Positions 10,776 through 56,346 of a DNA stretch of 64,000 nt are shown one piece after another. How positions within the stretch are numbered: position 1 is the stretch's first letter; every line of letters starts with the position of its first letter. The stretch is from Escherichia coli. GTDB lineage: Bacteria > Pseudomonadota > Gammaproteobacteria > Enterobacterales > Enterobacteriaceae. A model generated the notes under the pieces. That model searched no databases and had not been told where the DNA came from. It saw only the letters and a program-made list of their open reading frames with translations. Location: NCBI RefSeq assembly GCF_022846255.1, contig NZ_AP025682.1, one strand, 5' to 3'. A program made the translations under genes and the position numbers.

Positions 10776-11450
10776 CATGACTCCTTGCTCATCGCATGAA
10801 GACTCCGAGAGTGAACCCCGTTAGAAAGGGTCACACGCATGCCCCAATACAAAATTATTTGCTCGCCTCTATCGTTGCCATTTCATCAAAAGAGGAAAAG
10901 ACAATGATAAAAAAGTTACAAATGTGTTAATGAATAAACCAAATTGATCCCGTAATTATATTACGCCGCAAAATCCTTACAATAAACAGGTTTTTATTGA
11001 GCAAATTTGCATTTTTCGACAGTGATCAATTTATAGCGAAATTGTCACGATCTCACCAATTTGATCTACAACAATTTATCGTGTTTTGCAGATTTTTTTC
11101 AAGAATTAAAAATTGATTTATATCAAAATCAACCACATATGTTAATTATGTGTGAATCATGAGCCACTGGTAACTTTATTGTTAATTTATTGTAACAAAA
11201 CAGCACGGTAAATTACCCACATGGAAATATATAGATAAAAAACCAGTATTTTATTTAACAAAGCCGCTTTATCGACTTTTTATAATACTAATTAGTTAGA
11301 GTAGCTACTTTATTGCCATTTTACATAACATATTTTTATCAACGTTAATTGATTGTTGTCTTTATGAGCAACGTACTGTAAATCCGTCACTTATTGTTTC
11401 ATTGGTAATAATCACAAGAAGAAATAGATACCTTAGGTATAGTCAGATGG
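10776..11450. promoter_or_regulatory. AT-rich region upstream of cydA; probably includes the cydAB promoter/regulatory region, extent uncertain
   Basis: Non-coding AT-rich DNA immediately 5' of cydA; cydAB is known to have a long complex upstream control region. Confidence 0.4.
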
Positions 11451-12103
11451 AACAAGGATTTTTAAAATAAAATATATATGGTATTAATATTTCCCGATCT
11501 GTATTCAATGATTCGCTCAAAGATTGAAAATCAAGAGAAATTGTTATAGCAGTGATACGAAACAACAAAACGGAATGATTGCCAGCCGTTAGAAAACACC
11601 GGACACTCTCGTGTAAAAAGCTACCCTGTCTATGGATATAGCGATATCCACTCATCAAGCGTGGACTGAATGATATTCAGCTCCATATGGGCGGAAACCT
11701 GGAGGATAAATACGATTTCGCCGTTGGAATCAAGGTTGTTCTGCAATATCTACCAGACTGCTTCAATTTATCTGTTTTGGCAGTGCAATAATCTTAATTT
11801 AACTATTTGAAGATGATGATATTGTCAGATGCCAGAAATTTAGTAATCTGGAGAACCGTGTCTATGATCACTAAATATTAAAGTAATAGTCGATAATTCA
11901 GTAGCACATCGGGTAATATAACGTATTGATACATAATCATATTAAAAAATTCGTGATTAAATAACATAAGAATATGTTTTATTATCATTAAAAAACCTTC
12001 TATTTCCATCATCCTTAAGATAATAAAACAGCGAATGATGGATAACTTGACCAGAAAAACAAGCAAGCATATAAAATTAAAAAATATGATTCCACTTTCA
12101 TTT

Positions 12104-13219
12104 TTATAAAATGGCATCGTGAAGAGCGAGTTGATAATGCTGCAATGCATCAGCGTCCTGTCCAGCAGTTTCATAAATTTTGGCAATGTTATAATAGGAG
12201 TTAGCGCGCGTTGTCGCCGCATTTACCCCACTCGCTAACGAGATCGCTTTACGATTTGCCCAAATTGCTTCCGCTATGTTGCCATTTTTCTGATACGCCA
12301 GACCCAGGTTACTAAATGCCTGTCCGTAATTGCCGTCTAATTCTGTTGCCTGTTGGAAGAGTTGAATGGCTTGCTCAAGTTGACCGGTTTTATAAACAGC
12401 TTCACCTTCGCGATTATATTTTCTTGCCAGTTGAGTATCTCCACTGTTTTGCATCGCAGGCGAAGCCGGAGCTGAAGAGTCCGTCGCAGGCATTATCACA
12501 GTGGCTAAATCCCTGACGTCTAATGTGGTGTCGTTAAAATTGGCGCTGGTAACAGAGTTGATATCTTCAAACTCGCCGTTTGGATTGAGTTTAAACACGG
12601 TCCAGATGTTCCCTCGTTTTCCAGCAGGGACACTATAACTACGTACCAGGGAGCTCCCTACATAAACAAACACTCTTGCCTTACTGGCAGAGAGATAATT
12701 ACTGTTGGGCAACCCTTTATTGCTATAGTCCTGCACGGCATAGATGTAACTTTCACCAAAATGCTTTTTGCTGATAGTGACAGTTTCTGGTCCATAGCTA
12801 TCCGTATCATCAACATCCAGATTGGCATCAGTTCCCTCTTTACTATCAAAATAGATATGTCCGCCAGGGAAGATCAAATGCGAATCAAGATCAAAAGGCT
12901 TTTCGCCCCAGCTCAAAACTACACGCATGCCATCCAGATTCGTCATCACCGGACTGATAGCATAAGTCATGCCAGCGCACGGACATTTGACCACCAGATT
13001 GGAATACCCCTCTTTTTTGACGATTAATAGAGCATCTTTATTATCAGCAAATGAAGTCCCCAAACTAATGCTGCCCGAAGTATTTGTGGTTCCAGAAACA
13101 GATTGTGCGCCATTGCGTTGCAGCGTCATCGATGCTCCTTCAATGCGTTTATCTTTCACTGTCGCACTTAAAATATCGATATTTACATCGGCCGCATAAA
13201 CGTCCGAATTTATACCCAT
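12104..13219 (-). CDS. Hypothetical protein, probably exported: N-terminal beta-rich region (PEGA/carboxypeptidase-regulatory-like, then a region with DLDSHL and LDVDDTDSYGPE motifs), low-complexity linker, C-terminal TPR repeats. Possible N-terminal extension to 13267 with no canonical start
   Basis: 371-aa ORF in track; TPR-like helical repeats near C-terminus (AFSNLGLAYQKNGNIAEAI..., YYNIAKIYETAGQDADAL); in-frame upstream codons encode a signal-peptide-like KKKIVLPVALALMGINSDVYA-ADV. Confidence 0.7.
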   Translation of the reverse strand: MGINSDVYAADVNIDILSATVKDKRIEGASMTLQRNGAQSVSGTTNTSGSISLGTSFADNKDALLIVKKEGYSNLVVKCPCAGMTYAISPVMTNLDGMRVVLSWGEKPFDLDSHLIFPGGHIYFDSKEGTDANLDVDDTDSYGPETVTISKKHFGESYIYAVQDYSNKGLPNSNYLSASKARVFVYVGSSLVRSYSVPAGKRGNIWTVFKLNPNGEFEDINSVTSANFNDTTLDVRDLATVIMPATDSSAPASPAMQNSGDTQLARKYNREGEAVYKTGQLEQAIQLFQQATELDGNYGQAFSNLGLAYQKNGNIAEAIWANRKAISLASGVNAATTRANSYYNIAKIYETAGQDADALQHYQLALHDAIL

Positions 13220-13357
13220 CAGGGCCAGAGCAACCGGCAGAACAATTTTCTTCTTGTATAAATGCTTTTACAGAACGGAGAGGGGATATTTTGCCGGGCA
13301 TTATTGCGCAGAAGATGGGAAAAAAGCAGTGGGCAAACTTTTCAGATTAGTGCCCGA

Positions 13358-13458
13358 ATAAAAAAGGCCATCATAAGATGGCCAACCATGTCGAAACCGA
13401 CAGCCCTTCGCCCCTCCTGTAGAGGGAAGCGGCGAGGGCTATTTCTTATTACAGATAT
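13358..13458 (-). ncRNA. sdhX: sucD 3'-UTR, expected position of the 3'-UTR-derived sRNA SdhX (RybD), ending at the sucD terminator
   Basis: Region directly 3' of sucD stop on minus strand, ending in hairpin ggccatc-ataa-gatggcc plus U-run (13358-13383); SdhX is known to derive from the sucD 3'-UTR. The sRNA sequence itself was not checked from memory. Confidence 0.55.
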
Positions 13459-14328
13459 TTATTTCAGAACAGTTTTCAGTGCTTCACCGATATCCGCCAG
13501 GCTGCGAACGGTTTTCACGCCTGCGGCTTCCAGAGCAGCGAATTTCTCATCCGCAGTCCCTTTACCACCGGCAATGATCGCACCTGCGTGACCCATACGT
13601 TTGCCTTTCGGCGCAGTCACACCAGCGATGTAACCCACAACTGGCTTGGTAACGTGCTCCTTGATGTACGCCGCTGCTTCTTCTTCAGCGCTACCGCCGA
13701 TCTCACCGATCATCACGATCGCTTCGGTCTGCGGATCTTTTTCGAACATTTCGAGGATGTCGATAAAGTTAGAACCAGGGATCGGGTCGCCGCCGATACC
13801 GACACAGGTCGACTGACCGAAACCGTAATCCGTGGTCTGTTTAACCGCTTCATAGGTCAGCGTACCGGAACGGGAAACGATACCCACTTTACCCGGTTTG
13901 TGAATGTGACCCGGCTGGATACCGATTTTGCATTCCCCCGGGGTGATAACGCCTGGGCAGTTCGGGCCGATCATACGAACGCCTGCTTCATCCAGTTTCA
14001 CTTTCACCGTCAGCATATCCAGCGTCGGGATGCCTTCAGTGATGGTGATAATCAGTTTGATGCCTGCATCGATAGCTTCCAGAATGGAGTCTTTGCAGAA
14101 CGGTGCTGGTACGTAGATAACAGAGGCGGTAGCGCCAGTAGCAGCAACAGCTTCACGCACGGTGTTGAACACCGGCAGGCCGAGGTGGGTAGTACCGCCT
14201 TTACCTGGGGTTACGCCGCCAACCATTTTAGTGCCGTATGCAATGGCCTGCTCTGAGTGGAAAGTCCCCTGGCTACCGGTAAAGCCCTGGCAGATAACCT
14301 TGGTGTTTTTATCAATTAAAATGGACAT
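13459..14328 (-). CDS. sucD: Succinyl-CoA synthetase alpha subunit
   Basis: 289-aa [48 protein letters not shown]. Confidence 0.95.
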
Positions 14329-15494
14329 TATTTCCCCTCCACTGCGGCAACAACCTGCTGAGCTGCATCCGTCAGACCTTTTGCTGCAATAATATTCAGG
14401 CCGCTGTCAGCCAGTTTCTTCGCGCCGAGTTCGGCGTTGTTACCTTCCAGACGTACCACGACCGGTACGTTAACACCCACTTCTGCTACCGCGCCGATGA
14501 TACCGTCAGCGATCAGGTCGCAACGAACGATACCGCCGAAGATGTTAACCAGAACGGCTTTCACTTTGTCGTCAGAGAGGATGATTTTGAACGCTTCGGT
14601 TACACGTTCTTTGGTTGCGCCGCCGCCAACGTCCAGGAAGTTAGCCGGTTCGCCGCCGTGCAGTTTAACGATGTCCATCGTACCCATCGCCAGACCTGCG
14701 CCGTTAACCATACAACCGATGTTACCGTCCAGCGCAACGTAGTTCAGTTCCCACTGTGCAGCCTGTGCTTCACGCGGATCTTCCTGCGACTGGTCACGCA
14801 TTTCACGCAGATCAGGCTGGCGGAACAGTGCGTTGCCATCAGCGCCCAGTTTGCCGTCGAGGCAAATCAGATCGCCCTGTTTGGTAATAACCAGCGGGTT
14901 GATTTCGATAAGCGCAAGGTCGCGCTCCAGGAAAATGGTCGCCAGGCCCATGAAGATTTTGGTGAACTGCTGAACCAGTTTACCTTCCAGACCCAGTTTA
15001 AACGCCAGTTCGCGTCCCTGATACGGCATCGGGCCAGTCAGCGGATCAAGCGCAACTTTGTGGATCAGGTGCGGAGTTTCTTCCGCCACTTTTTCGATTT
15101 CCACGCCGCCTTCGGTGGAGGCCATAAAGACCACGCGACGGGAACTACGGTCAACAACGGCACCGAGATACAGCTCTTTAGCGATATCGGTCGCTGCTTC
15201 AACCAGAATCTGGTTAACCGGTTGGCCATTAGCATCTGTTTGATACGTTACCAGACGCTTGCCCAGCCAGTTTTCTGCAAAAGCACGGATGTCTTCTTTG
15301 CTGTTTACAACTTTCACACCGCCCGCTTTACCGCGGCCACCAGCGTGAACCTGACATTTCACTACCCACGGACCGGCACCGATTTTTGAAGCGGCTTCTT
15401 CTGCTTCGCGCGGAGTAGTACAGGCATAACCCACCGGTGCTGGTAAGCCATAGCGGGCAAAAAGTTGTTTTGCCTGATATTCATGTAAGTTCAT
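14328..15494 (-). CDS. sucC: Succinyl-CoA synthetase beta subunit
   Basis: 388-aa [23 protein letters not shown]. Confidence 0.95.
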
Positions 15495-15534
15495 GTGTTC
15501 TGTCCATCCTTCAGTAATCGTTATCTTTTAAACC

Positions 15535-15565
15535 GTAGACCGACACCCTATCCACGTCGGTCTAC
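15535..15565 (-). other. Intra-operon stem-loop in the sucB-sucC intergenic spacer (10-bp perfect stem)
   Basis: gtagaccgac / gtcggtctac with 11-nt loop, seen directly. Confidence 0.45.
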
Positions 15566-15587
15566 AGTGCAGGTGAAGCTTAAACTA

Positions 15588-16805
15588 CTAAACGTCCAGC
15601 AGCAGACGCGTCGGATCTTCCAGCAACTCTTTGATCGTTACAAGGAAGCCCACGGATTCGCGACCATCGATCAAACGGTGATCGTAGGACAGCGCCAGGT
15701 ACATCATCGGCAGGATCTCAACCTGACCATTCACTGCCATCGGACGATCTTTGATAGCGTGCATACCCAGAATTGCGCTCTGCGGTGGGTTGATGATAGG
15801 CGTTGACATCAGGGAACCGAACACACCACCGTTGGTGATGGTGAAGTTACCACCGGTCAGATCTTCAACCGTCAGCTTGCCGTCACGGCCTTTAACTGCC
15901 AGCTCTTTGATTTTCTTCTCGATGTCTGCCATGCCTAGGGTATCGACATCACGCAGTACTGGCGTCACCAGGCCGCGCGGCGTAGAAACCGCCATGCTGA
16001 CGTCGAAATAGTTGTGGTAAACCACATCATCGCCGTCGATAGACGCGTTCACTTCCGGGTAACGTTTCAGGGCTTCAACCACCGCTTTCACGTAGAAGGA
16101 CATAAAGCCCAGACGGATGCCATGACGTTTTTCAAACGCTTCACCGTACTGCTTACGCAGATCCATAATCGGCTTCATGTTGACTTCGTTGAACGTGGTC
16201 AGCATAGCGGTGGAGTTTTTCGCTTCCAGCAGACGCTCTGCCACACGCTTACGCAGGCGAGTCATCGGGACACGTTTTTCGCTACGTGCAGCCAGAGCCG
16301 GTTGCGCCGCCGGAGCAGCCGCTGCCGGAGCAGACTCTTTCGCCGGGGCTTTCGCCAGATGTTTTTCCACATCTTCACGGGTCAGACGACCACCCACACC
16401 CGTGCCTTTAATAGCGCTGGCGTCGAGGTTATGTTCAGCCAGCAGGCGACGGATCGCCGGGCTTAACGCATCGTTGTTTTGCTCTTCCAGAGACGCCTGC
16501 TGGCGTTGCGCCGGAGTGGACGCTTTCTCTTCAGATTTGGCGCTGGTTTCTTTACCCGCGCTGTTGCCTTCACGCAGGCGACCAAGGATCTGACGAGACG
16601 TTACCGTTGTACCTTCATCTTCCAGAACCGCATCCAGAATGCCGTCTGCTGATGCCGGTACTTCCAGTACCACTTTGTCAGTTTCGATTTCTACCAGCAC
16701 TTCATCACGTACGACTGCGTCGCCGGGTTTTTTATGCCAGGTTGCGACGGTGGCATCGGCTACGGATTCAGGCAGGTCAGGGACCAGAATATCTACGCTA
16801 CTCAT
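15588..16805 (-). CDS. sucB: 2-oxoglutarate dehydrogenase E2 (dihydrolipoyl succinyltransferase)
   Basis: 405-aa ORF with lipoyl domain and Ala/Pro linker. Confidence 0.95.
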
Positions 16806-16819
16806 TGTGTATCCTTTAT

Positions 16820-19621
16820 TTATTCGACGTTCAGCGCGTCATTAACCAGATCTTGTTGCTGTTTCTGGTGAACGGACATATACCCTACCGCCGGAGAGGC
16901 GGAGGCTGGGCGGCCTGCATAACGCAGAGAAGCCCCAAACGGAATCACTTCACGGAAATGATGCTGGCTGCAGTACCATGCGCCCTGGTTGAGCGGCTCT
17001 TCCTGGCACCAGACAAAATCCTTGACGTGAGCAAACTGCTGCAACACTTCCTGCATCGCTTTATGCGGGAACGGGTAGAGTTGCTCGATACGCACAATGG
17101 CGACATCGTGTTGATTGTTCTTACGACGTTGTTCCAGCAGGTCGTAATAAACCTTACCAGAACACATCACTACGCGCTTCACGCCCTTCGGATCAAGCTC
17201 GTCGATTTCACCGATGGCTGGCAGGAAGGTGCCGTTCGCCAGTTCTTCGAGGCTGGATACCGCCAGCGGATGACGCAGCAGGGATTTCGGCGACATCACG
17301 ACCAGTGGACGACGCATCCCGCGCAACGCCTGACGACGCAGCATGTGGTAAACCTGTGCCGGGGTAGAAGGTACGCAAACCTGCATGTTTTGCTCAGCGC
17401 AAAGTTGCAGATAACGTTCCAGACGCGCGGAGGAGTGCTCCGGCCCCTGCCCTTCGTAACCGTGCGGCAGCAACATCACCAGGCCACACATCCGGCCCCA
17501 TTTCTGTTCGCCAGAGGAGATGAACTGGTCGATAACCACCTGTGCACCGTTGGCGAAGTCACCGAACTGTGCTTCCCAGATGGTCAGGGTACGTGGTTCT
17601 GCGGTGGCATAACCGTATTCAAACGCCAGTACGGCTTCTTCAGACAGTACAGAGTCCCAGACGCGGAACGCGCCCTGGCCGTTATGGATATGTTGCAGCG
17701 GCGTGTAAGTGGAACCGTTAGACTGGTTGTGGATCACCGCGTGGCGGTGGAAGAAGGTACCGCGACCGGAGTCTTCACCCGACAGGCGAACCGGAATGCC
17801 TTCGTCAACCAGCGTGGCGTAAGCGAGGTTTTCCGCGCCGCCCCAGTCGAACAGTTTCTCACCGGCAGCCATTGCCTGGCGATCGCCATAAATCTTGGCA
17901 ACGCGAGACTGCATTTCAACCGCTTCCGGCACCGTGCTGATGCGTTTAGCCAGTTCCTGCAGGCGCTTCATCTCAACTTTGTTCGGGTACTCTTCGTCCC
18001 ATTCGTGGTTGAGGTACGGCGACCAGGTGAAAGAGTGCATGTTCATCGGACGCCACTCTGCTACAACGCAATCGCCAGCATCCAGCGCATCGCGGTACAG
18101 GTTAACCATCTCGGTGGCATCTTCCAGCGTCGCGACTTTTTCCTGCTCCAGCTTGTCAGCGTAGATTTTGCGCGGCGTCGGATGTTTTTTGATTTTCTGA
18201 TACATCAGCGGCTGGGTTGCGCTCGGCTCGTCGGCTTCGTTGTGGCCGTGACGGCGGTAGCACACCAGATCGATGAAGACATCACGTTTAAAGGTGTTAC
18301 GGAAATCGAGCGCCAGACGGGTCACAAAGGCAACGGCTTCCGGATCATCCGCATTAACGTGGAAAATCGGTGCCTGTACCATCTTGCCGATATCAGTACA
18401 GTACGGCGTAGAACGGGCATCCAGCGGGTTAGAGGTGGTGAAGCCAACCTGGTTGTTGATAACGATACGTACCGTACCGCCAACTTCATAACCACGCGCT
18501 TTCGACATGTTCAGGGTTTCCTGAACTACGCCCTGCCCGGTCACTGCGGCGTCACCATGAATGGTGATTGGCAGCACTTTGTTGCTGCTCGGCTCATCAA
18601 GTCTGTCCAGACGGGCACGAACAGAACCGATAACGACCGGGCTTACAATCTCAAGGTGAGACGGGTTAAACGCCAGCGCCAGGTGAACCAGGCCGCCATC
18701 GGTCTGGAAGTCAGACGAGAAGCCCATGTGGTATTTCACGTCGCCCGTGCCGAGGTGTTCTTTATGTTTACCGGCAAACTCGTCGAACAAGTCTTGCGGT
18801 TTTTTACCCAGCACGTTCACCAGAACGTTCAGACGACCACGGTGCGCCATCCCGAGAACCACTTCGCGTGTGCCGCTGTTGCCAGCGTGGCGGATCATCT
18901 CTTTAAGCATCGGGATTAACGCGTCACCGCCTTCCAGCGAGAAGCGTTTTGCGCCAGGGAATTTTGCGCCAAGGTAACGTTCAAGGCCTTCAGCGGCGGT
19001 CAGTTCGCTTAAGAAGCGTTTTTTCTCTTCGCTATTGAAAGTCGCGCGACCAGACTCAATACGCTGTTGGATCCAGCGTTTTTCTTCAGTGCTGGTAATG
19101 TGCATATACTCGGCACCAATCGGGCCGCAGTAGGTTTGCTTGAGTGCTTCCAGCAGTTCGCCGAGTTTCATGGTTTCTTTGCCGCTGGCAAATGAACCGA
19201 CGTTGAAGGTCTCCTGGAAGTCTGCTTCGGTCAGATCGTGGAAAGACGGATCCAGATCGGCCACTTTATCTTGCTGCCACAGTCCCAGCGGATCGAGATT
19301 CGCATGCTGGTGACCACGGAAGCGGTATGCGTTAATGAGCTGCAGGACTTTAACCTGCTTCACATTGGTGTCAGGGTCGGAGATCGTTGAAGAGTAACGT
19401 GAAGCGTCTTTCGCCAGGCGGCGGAAATATTCACGCGTTTGAGAGTGGAATTGATCCGGTTTGACTCCCGTACCAGGTAACTGCTGGAACGTCGAACGCC
19501 AGTTAGCGTCAACCGAGTCAGGATCGGTTAAGAAGTCTTCATAGAGCTGTTCTATCCAGCTCTGGTTTGCGCCAGAGAGGTAAGAAGAGTCCAACCAGGC
19601 TTTCAAAGCGCTGTTCTGCAT
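16820..19621 (-). CDS. sucA: 2-oxoglutarate dehydrogenase E1
   Basis: 933-aa [37 protein letters not shown]. Confidence 0.95.
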
Positions 19622-19794
19622 CGTGATCCCTTAAGCATCTTTTTTATGCTTACTTCGCCGTGGATACTACCACGCACATTTCATATCTGATGTGCGTGCC
19701 GGGGTTCACTTGTTGCGGACTTGTCGTGTTTTCTGCGTCCGCTAAGGAACCTTTAAAAACTGTCTTAGTGTCAGGGGCAGTTTTTAAAGATTTC

Positions 19795-20075
19795 CTGCAT
19801 TTCTTTTGTAGGCCGGATAAGGCATTCACGCCGCATCCGGCGCTGTTTGCCTGATGCGACGCTTGCGCGTCTTATCAGGCCTACGGTTTCTGCATTTCTT
19901 TTGTAGGCCGGATAAGGCGTTCACGCCGCATCCGGCACTGGTTGCCTGATGCGACGCTTGTGCGTCTTATCAGGCCTACGGTTTCTGCATTTCTTTTGTA
20001 GGCCGGATAAGGCGTTCACGCCGCATCCGGCACTGGTTGCCTGATGCGACGCTTGCGCGTCTTATCAGGCCTACG
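19795..20075. repeat. Three tandem REP/BIME-type palindromic units between sucA and sdhB
   Basis: Near-identical ~98-bp units containing gccggataaggcgttcacgccgcatccggc and gatgcgacgcttgcgcgtcttatcaggcctac. Confidence 0.85.
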
Positions 20076-47127: not shown

Positions 47128-47137
47128 TAAAGCAAAG

Positions 47138-47171
47138 TAAAAAAGGGCGATCTTCTGACCGCCCTTTTTCT
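47138..47171. terminator. Bidirectional Rho-independent terminator between convergent potE and pgm
   Basis: aaaaagggcg...cgcccttttt. Confidence 0.6.
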
Positions 47172-51447: not shown

Positions 51448-51652
51448 TGTGATGCGGCGTAGACTCATGTCTACGCCGTATTAATAGATAATGCCAATCA
51501 AAATAATTGCTACAAATTTGTAACTTTTGCTGTTGTACCTGTACAATGTCCCGGTGTTCAAGTGGCCTTGCCGTTGTAAATGTAAGCTGTGCCACGTTTT
51601 TATTAACAATATTTGCCAGGGACTTGTGGTTTTCATTTAGGCGTGGCAATTC

Positions 51653-56317: not shown

Positions 56318-56346
56318 GATGCGACGCTCAAGCGTCGCATCAGGCA
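56318..56346. repeat. REP-like palindrome in glnS-nagE spacer
   Basis: gatgcgacgctcaagcgtcgcatcaggc. Confidence 0.55.

Follow-up and report, generated by a model that had tools for sequence, protein, structure and literature searches.

The sucB-sucC spacer and its hairpin

A perfect palindrome lies between sucB and sucC in the window, by which we mean the whole 64,000-nt stretch of Escherichia coli DNA analyzed here, and it raises the question of what kind of element stands at this site and whether it ends, protects, or leaves unaffected the operon mRNA in which it is transcribed. The initial annotation described two perfectly complementary 10-nt arms around an 11-nt loop (15535 to 15565), on the transcribed strand between the two genes. 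This description is borne out: the plus strand reads GTAGACCGAC-ACCCTATCCAC-GTCGGTCTAC, and the suc genes of the open reading frame list all lie on the minus strand (sucA at 16820 to 19621, sucB at 15588 to 16805, sucC at 14328 to 15494, and sucD at 13459 to 14328), with gene calls that agree with the annotation of identical E. coli genomes. The spacer measures 93 nt (15495 to 15587), and the hairpin begins 19 nt after the stop codon of sucB and ends 37 nt ahead of the sucC ATG. In the order of transcription, the spacer and the genes that border it are composed of the following parts.

15588 to 16805, minus strand: sucB (odhB) coding sequence with the C-terminus ...LLLDV and the TAG stop codon at 15588 to 15590 (open reading frame list, annotation, and translation).
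15585 to 15587, minus strand: second in-frame TAG abutting the sucB stop, giving the tandem stops GTT TAG TAG (sequence).
15570 to 15575, minus strand: CACCTG block next to the hairpin on its upstream side, unchanged across eight Enterobacteriaceae genera (alignment).
15556 to 15568, minus strand: 5' arm of the hairpin, ACUGUAGACCGAC, whose GUAGACCG also heads the first Y-type REP in K-12-type alleles.
15545 to 15555, minus strand: 11-nt loop, GUGGAUAGGGU; the BIME-2 array occupies the same position in long alleles.
15532 to 15544, minus strand: 3' arm of the hairpin, GUCGGUCUACGGU, of which UCGGUCUACGGU does not vary among the E. coli alleles seen and is shared by E. albertii.
About 15527, minus strand: predicted RNA 3' end (...CGGUCUACGGUUUAAA-3'), homologous to K-12 position 762981 (from K-12 Term-seq and the identical sequence).
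15513 to 15531, minus strand: AU-rich spacer UUAAAAGAUAACGAUUACU, predicted by the folds to be single-stranded, a candidate endonuclease entry site where cleavage may occur.
15495 to 15525, minus strand: conserved sucC translation-initiation block, including the Shine-Dalgarno sequence GAAGGAUGG at 15504 to 15512 (alignment).
14328 to 15494, minus strand: sucC coding sequence (open reading frame list and annotation).

On the mRNA strand, the core helix grows to 13 pairs by an A-U pair, a C-G pair, and a U.G wobble, so that ACUGUAGACCGAC faces GUCGGUCUACGGU and the 31-nt core becomes a 37-nt extended hairpin (15532 to 15568). Two weaker inner pairs are added in the minimum-energy fold, giving 15 pairs. 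The extended hairpin has a predicted folding energy of -20.9 kcal/mol, with pair probabilities of 0.92 to 1.00 across the 13 pairs in a 401-nt context, and the 106-nt region around it yields a fold z-score of -3.1, none of 200 shuffles folding as well. The tail 3' of the core stem reads GGUUUAAAAG, and the 8 nt that follow the extended stem include just 2 U; the absence of a U-tract, as first described, is therefore correct, and a terminator scan is likewise silent.

The exact stem-loop pattern has an expectation of 0.00 in shuffles of the window. Perfect inverted repeats of at least 10 bp with a loop of 3 to 20 nt are expected by chance about 1.2 times per 64 kb, so that one such stem in 64 kb would be unremarkable; the window contains 42 overlapping hits, which we count as about 17 distinct hairpins. 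By our own arithmetic, a perfect stem of at least 10 bp inside the 93-nt spacer has an expectation of about 0.002. Since the window holds many perfect stems, the weight of this hairpin comes from its location and conservation and not from the stem alone.

On the downstream side, the sucC ribosome-binding region is known in K-12 to be repressed by the small RNAs Spot 42 and GcvB, which fits a post-transcriptional uncoupling of sucCD from sucAB. We dropped the idea of a long-range pairing that hides the sucC Shine-Dalgarno sequence because it is not robust, the flanking pairings shifting with sequence context and with a common C/T polymorphism. The CACCTG block on the upstream side may be a small-RNA target or a lookalike of the 16S rRNA 3' end, both of which we regard as speculation.

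A BIME-free allele of a polymorphic site

The element between sucB and sucC in K-12 MG1655 is a known BIME-2 and a strong gyrase cleavage site. The spacer there is 274 nt long and carries a Y-Z2-Y-Z2 REP array followed by a degenerate terminal element, placed between ...CACTGTAGACCG and TCGGTCTACGGTTTAAAAG.... The spacers of the window and of K-12 agree on the left flank through ...CACCTGCACTGTAGACCG and on the right from TCGGTCTACGGTTTAAAAGATAAC..., and the arms of the window hairpin are the outermost 8 to 9 nt on either side of the K-12 array. It is near certain that the window palindrome is the minimal, BIME-free allele of a polymorphic REP/BIME site between sucB and sucC. Site, flanks, and closing helix are common to both alleles, as is the spacing to the sucB stop on one side and to the ribosome-binding site of sucC on the other. 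The alleles differ in the interior, where the window has an 11-nt loop and none of the four canonical REPs (two Y, two Z2) or the linkers between them. Without the array, the window has no counterpart of the internal K-12 3' end at 762937 and, presumably, no Y-REP gyrase sites.

A 501-nt query matches 5425 of the 5426 complete E. coli genomes at an identity of at least 95%. The short hairpin allele is present as a single copy in 3402 of the 5426 (about 63%), and the remaining genomes, K-12 included, carry a BIME-2 array of 168 to 272 nt (+168, +181, or +272 nt) at the same site. Carriers of the short allele include CFT073, Nissle, and many O157:H7 strains, as well as O145:H28 and O111:H8 strains. 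An evenly spaced sample of 60 genomes gave the following allele frequencies.

Short hairpin allele, spacer of about 93 nt: 38 of 60 genomes.
E. albertii-like long allele, spacer of 261 nt: 1 of 60 genomes.
K-12-like long allele, spacer of 274 nt: 10 of 60 genomes.
Long allele with an extra Y-Z2 pair, spacer of 365 nt: 11 of 60 genomes.

The K-12 BIME-2 between sucB and sucC serves as a model both for REP-stabilized decay intermediates and for a strong gyrase site. With about 63% of complete E. coli genomes carrying the 31-nt hairpin in place of the BIME-2, the RNA-decay and DNA-topology results obtained in K-12 may not transfer to most strains. The allele series also offers a natural experiment, in which the effects of the closing helix can be set against those of the REP array and in which it may be seen how arrays arise or collapse.

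In minimum-energy folds, the spacers of 89, 93, 261, 274, and 365 nt all close with one helix, CUGUAGACCG... paired with ...CGGUCUACGG, and the arm sequences common to the short and the BIME-2 alleles are GTAGACCG and CGGTCTAC. Among healthy strains, the length enclosed by this helix varies between 7 nt and about 280 nt, which implies that the precise structure is not critical. Within the short allele, a 41-mer centered on the hairpin is identical to the window in 2559 genomes, a T-to-G variant is found in 560 and a G-to-A variant in 201, and 1 genome has lost 4 nt (the 89-nt spacer class); all three of these identified variants fall in the loop. The outer stem or flank is changed in 4 of the 3402 genomes, and the one such change that was read turns the U.G wobble into a U-A pair, improving the helix. 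The restriction of variation to the loop is weak evidence of selection, representing three or four events and excluding about 77 further short-allele genomes whose variants, at 41-mer positions 14 to 28 near the loop, were left unread.

The position after GUAG is an A-U pair in the closing helix and a G-C pair in the REP consensus, in the other REP heads of the window, and in a Citrobacter hairpin described below. As both sides have changed together, this exchange lends modest support to an RNA helix, and no more than modest because DNA-level processes acting on palindromic repeats can mimic compensatory change even when the RNA is under no selection.

The 261-nt allele of E. coli AREA_486 shares about 98% identity with the allele of the E. 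albertii type strain and is clearly unlike the K-12 long allele, which suggests either an old shared polymorphism or a transfer between species. Long alleles are found in E. albertii and in part of E. coli; most E. coli have a short GTAG...CTAC palindrome, as does the single Citrobacter genome that was examined. The C/T polymorphism in the flank is unlinked to allele type, which we take to indicate recombination. Aligned against shuffles, the loop of the short allele and the degenerate terminal element of the long allele show a homology that is plausible and not significant.

Relation to REP and BIME elements

The hairpin shares several properties with REPs. It is a palindrome within the range of about 30 to 40 nt that is able to form a stem-loop (31-nt core, 37-nt extended), it is extragenic yet transcribed, lying after sucB within the sdh-suc operon, and it bears GTAG at its 5' foot and CTAC at its 3' foot, like two facing REP heads, the presence and mutual pairing of both being atypical. 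A REPIN is said to be just such an inverted pair of REPs, as reportedly described by Bertels and Rainey in 2011. The GGATAGGG motif of the hairpin furthermore resembles the GGATAAGG of Y-type REPs. Unlike canonical REPs, which have asymmetric mismatches, the hairpin is a perfect palindrome and is single-copy.

Local alignment with the Y and Z2 consensus sequences, the two types compared, gave matches no better than those of shuffles (fraction at or above the observed score, 0.20 to 0.69), and the locus-specific 8- to 9-nt arm ends alone stand out in the REP alignment. An Rfam scan of 13000 to 20000 (E value of at most 1) returned no hit at the hairpin, the naRNA4 matches in this region being only the sdhB-sucA REP pairs (19811 to 19976, 80 to 87 bits). 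Across the 3402 genomes, the hairpin occurs in one place per genome (median 1, highest 2). The alternation of Y and Z2 REPs with short linkers, which defines a BIME-2, is missing from the window allele; the K-12, 261-nt, and 365-nt alleles have it, as does E. albertii. Because the consensus match is at the level of shuffles, there is no naRNA4 hit, and the element is not repeated, we do not class the hairpin as a REP or a BIME. The most apt description is a solo palindrome that occupies a BIME site and has arms resembling REP heads.

We also considered a translational role. Liang and colleagues reportedly found in 2015 that a REP lying no more than 15 nt from a stop codon lowers translation. 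The hairpin falls outside this rule because its helix starts 19 nt after the stop.

Conservation of the hairpin in the Enterobacterales

We took the sucB-sucC spacers from 31 other Enterobacterales genomes, giving 32 taxa with the window. All 32 spacers contain at least one strong stem-loop (-10.6 to -33 kcal/mol), formed by unrelated sequences, and the fold z-score of the spacer is below -2 in 26 of the 32, with a median of -3.0. An alignment of eight genera shows the invariant CACCTG block upstream and the conserved translation-initiation block downstream, with a hairpin between them that is not alignable. The predicted structure is conserved across the order, and the sequence is not. Poor conservation had been named in the initial annotation as one of the outcomes that would speak against its reading; every sampled E. 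coli allele has the stem, and every one of these taxa has a hairpin.

Individual relatives illustrate the diversity at this position. Citrobacter sp. FP75 carries a different short palindrome, GTAGGCCT-TATC-AGGCCTAC, inside CCCGUAGG...CCUACGGG; E. albertii has a 261-nt BIME-2 allele near-identical to that of one E. coli strain; and the sucB-sucC spacer of Salmonella is 141 nt long according to the annotation table.

RNA ends and decay

The mapping of RNA 3' ends had been proposed as a check on the hairpin, and in K-12 such an end is found. The Term-seq data of Adams et al. (2021) for MG1655 (Supplementary file 1, sheet LB 0.4) list a 3' end at 762981 on the plus strand with an average count of 1569. 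It falls between ...ATATTCGGTCTACGGTTTAAA and AGATAACGAT, 5 nt past the closing helix, in a sequence identical to that of the window, where the homologous position is about 15527 (...CUACGGUUUAAA). The K-12 helix at this place encloses the whole BIME-2 array, and the end is modest and appears on one of three growth-condition sheets only. A second K-12 3' end at 762937, 9 nt after the last Z2 REP, belongs to a second growth-condition sheet, judged by its position in the file (Adams et al. 2021). In addition, a REP-protected decay intermediate from sucB-sucC is known to accumulate in rhlB pcnB mutants of K-12. Since K-12 has the same arms and 3' flank, these observations give indirect support, by analogy, to the RNA stability or processing element that was first suggested for the window.

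Stem-loops without a U-tract are known to define 3' ends and to protect them against PNPase and RNase II, and protective hairpins between cistrons stabilize the upstream cistrons. The window hairpin has the features of such a 3'-protective stem-loop, with its stable stem, its lack of a U-tract, and its base a short distance past the stop codon. In this it is like the malE-malF REPs (Newbury et al. 1987) and the protective structures of Dar & Sorek (2018), which are likewise stable, U-tract-free stem-loops between cistrons of one operon and are likewise placed to block 3'-to-5' exonucleases after a downstream cut. It differs from them in that no differential decay is reported for K-12 sucB versus sucC: a survey of operon decay in K-12 covered sdh-suc, and sucB and sucC are not among its differentially decaying pairs. 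Any stabilizing effect may therefore be small or condition-specific.

Proposed function

We consider that the hairpin probably acts as a barrier to 3' exonucleases that protects the sucAB mRNA, by analogy with REP stabilizers, and not as a terminator. The hairpin would be transcribed within the sdhCDAB-sucABCD mRNA and would fold as a very stable, U-tract-free stem-loop, the distance of 19 nt from the stop codon being probably enough for a terminating ribosome to leave it folded. An endonuclease may then cut downstream, in the AU-rich spacer or within sucC, after which PNPase and RNase II would trim back in the 3'-to-5' direction and stall a few nucleotides 3' of the helix. The putative product is a message, sdh-sucAB or sucAB, whose 3' end is protected and whose decay would thereby be uncoupled from that of sucCD, which Spot 42 and GcvB control separately through its own ribosome-binding site. 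We infer that the short hairpin alone would do the same job as the K-12 site. The feature is real and conserved; most likely it is a protective stem-loop between cistrons, an ordinary type of element, at a REP/BIME locus already known to be variable. Of the initial interpretation, the stability or processing part is supported indirectly by the K-12 3' end, the decay intermediate, and the conservation; the terminator part is not supported, and the identity of the palindrome as a BIME-free allele had been missed.

Alternative explanations

The palindrome might also be a neutral by-product of REP/BIME turnover, either the remnant of a collapsed array or the seed of a later one, with an RNA hairpin that has no role. 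We regard this explanation as possible and rather doubtful. The locus is highly polymorphic, with spacers of five lengths, the arms bear the GTAG and CTAC heads typical of REPs, and the window contains a second polymorphism of BIME versus solo palindrome, at phr-dtpD, together with a BIME copy number at sdhB-sucA that differs from that of K-12; the absence of a differential decay of sucB and sucC in the K-12 survey would also agree with a hairpin of no consequence. However, REP dynamics alone would hardly account for a strong hairpin in 32 of 32 Enterobacterales with unrelated sequences, all sampled alleles keep the closing helix, and the K-12 3' end adjoins this helix.

A more far-reaching idea, which we consider unlikely, is that the helix GTAGACCG/CGGTCTAC forms a fixed docking site of two facing REP heads, at which BIME-2 arrays are inserted, amplified, and excised, perhaps by a REP-associated transposase. 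If this were true, the window would represent the empty or excised state, and the alleles of 89/93, 261, 274, and 365 nt would form a before-and-after series exposing the target and the footprint of REP/BIME mobility. As a corollary, the helix would insulate the insert, so that the distance from the stop of sucB to the ribosome-binding site of sucC stays functionally constant.

The partial terminator of the initial annotation, which would lower the expression of sucCD relative to sucAB as an intrinsic or Rho-assisted attenuator, appears very unlikely. Like Rho-independent terminators, the hairpin is a stable, GC-containing stem-loop that follows a stop codon on the transcribed strand; it lies between two cistrons, and BIMEs are reported to attenuate transcription (Espeli et al. 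2001). At least 5 U follow the hairpin in 2 of the 32 Enterobacterales spacers, that of Rosenbergiella with 7 U and that of one Pantoea with 5 U. Unlike such terminators, the window hairpin has a stem with just 2 U in the next 8 nt, which the terminator scan passes over, and a translated gene begins 37 nt downstream, a distance that we judge to leave little untranslated RNA for Rho loading. Furthermore, no Rho-termination region is listed at 7627xx to 7631xx in K-12 after Rho inhibition, and the Salmonella read counts (314 for sucB, 214 for sucC, and 527 for sucD) show no consistent drop across the junction.

GTAG/CTAC is the tetranucleotide recognized by REP-associated transposases. An action at the level of DNA, as a cruciform, a protein site (gyrase or RAYT), or a recombination hotspot, with the RNA being irrelevant, likewise appears very unlikely: arms that begin with GTAG and end with CTAC and the strong gyrase cleavage at the K-12 BIME-2 would fit it, but gyrase prefers Y-type REPs, which are absent from the window allele, the hairpin is single-copy with no REP consensus match, and the sigma-70 promoter and intrinsic-terminator scans found no promoter-like or operator-like context at the hairpin.

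Other repeats and differences from K-12 in the window

The sdhB-sucA spacer (19808 to 20074) contains three tandem Y-Z2 REP pairs, forming a BIME-2, of which two match naRNA4 (RF02564) with 80 to 87 bits. The spacer is 143 nt longer in the window than in K-12, so that the strain exceeds K-12 in REPs at this place, yet has none at sucB-sucC.

In the phr-dtpD spacer, a solo, perfect 14-bp palindrome, GCCTGATAAAACGC-AGCGA-GCGTTTTATCAGGC, is found at 32681 to 32713; it is homologous to a Z2 unit and lacks GTAG. The K-12 phr-dtpD spacer (740900 to 741027) holds a Y REP and a Z2 REP with a long linker between them, an arrangement that we read as a BIME-1. The solo forms at phr-dtpD and at sucB-sucC are both perfect palindromes, unlike canonical REPs.

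On the downstream side of sucD and the sdhX region, K-12 has mngR, mngA, and mngB (765148 to 771079); in their place, the window carries a different sequence of about 2.2 kb (11157 to 13360), which includes an open reading frame on the minus strand (12104 to 13219) for a 371-residue protein with tetratricopeptide (TPR) repeats. Three further K-12 segments remain unaligned, with window junctions at 34670 to 34681, 25394 to 25428, and 47137 to 47167; the missing segments are the RhsC region (729392 to 738963), most of the ybgOPQD fimbrial cluster (748313 to 753088), and ybfP-ybfG-ybfI (715244 to 716906).

Two more palindromes are found in the window. A perfect 10-bp hairpin without a U-tract, CGGCGTAGAC-TCAT-GTCTACGCCG, lies at 51455 to 51478, a few nucleotides past the apparent fldA stop codon and upstream of what we take to be the fur promoter region, and has GTAGAC/GTCTAC at the top of its stem. 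The second, at 56318 to 56341, is a solo Z2-like palindrome, GGATGCGACGC-TCAA-GCGTCGCATCAGGCA, with a perfect stem and no GTAG head.
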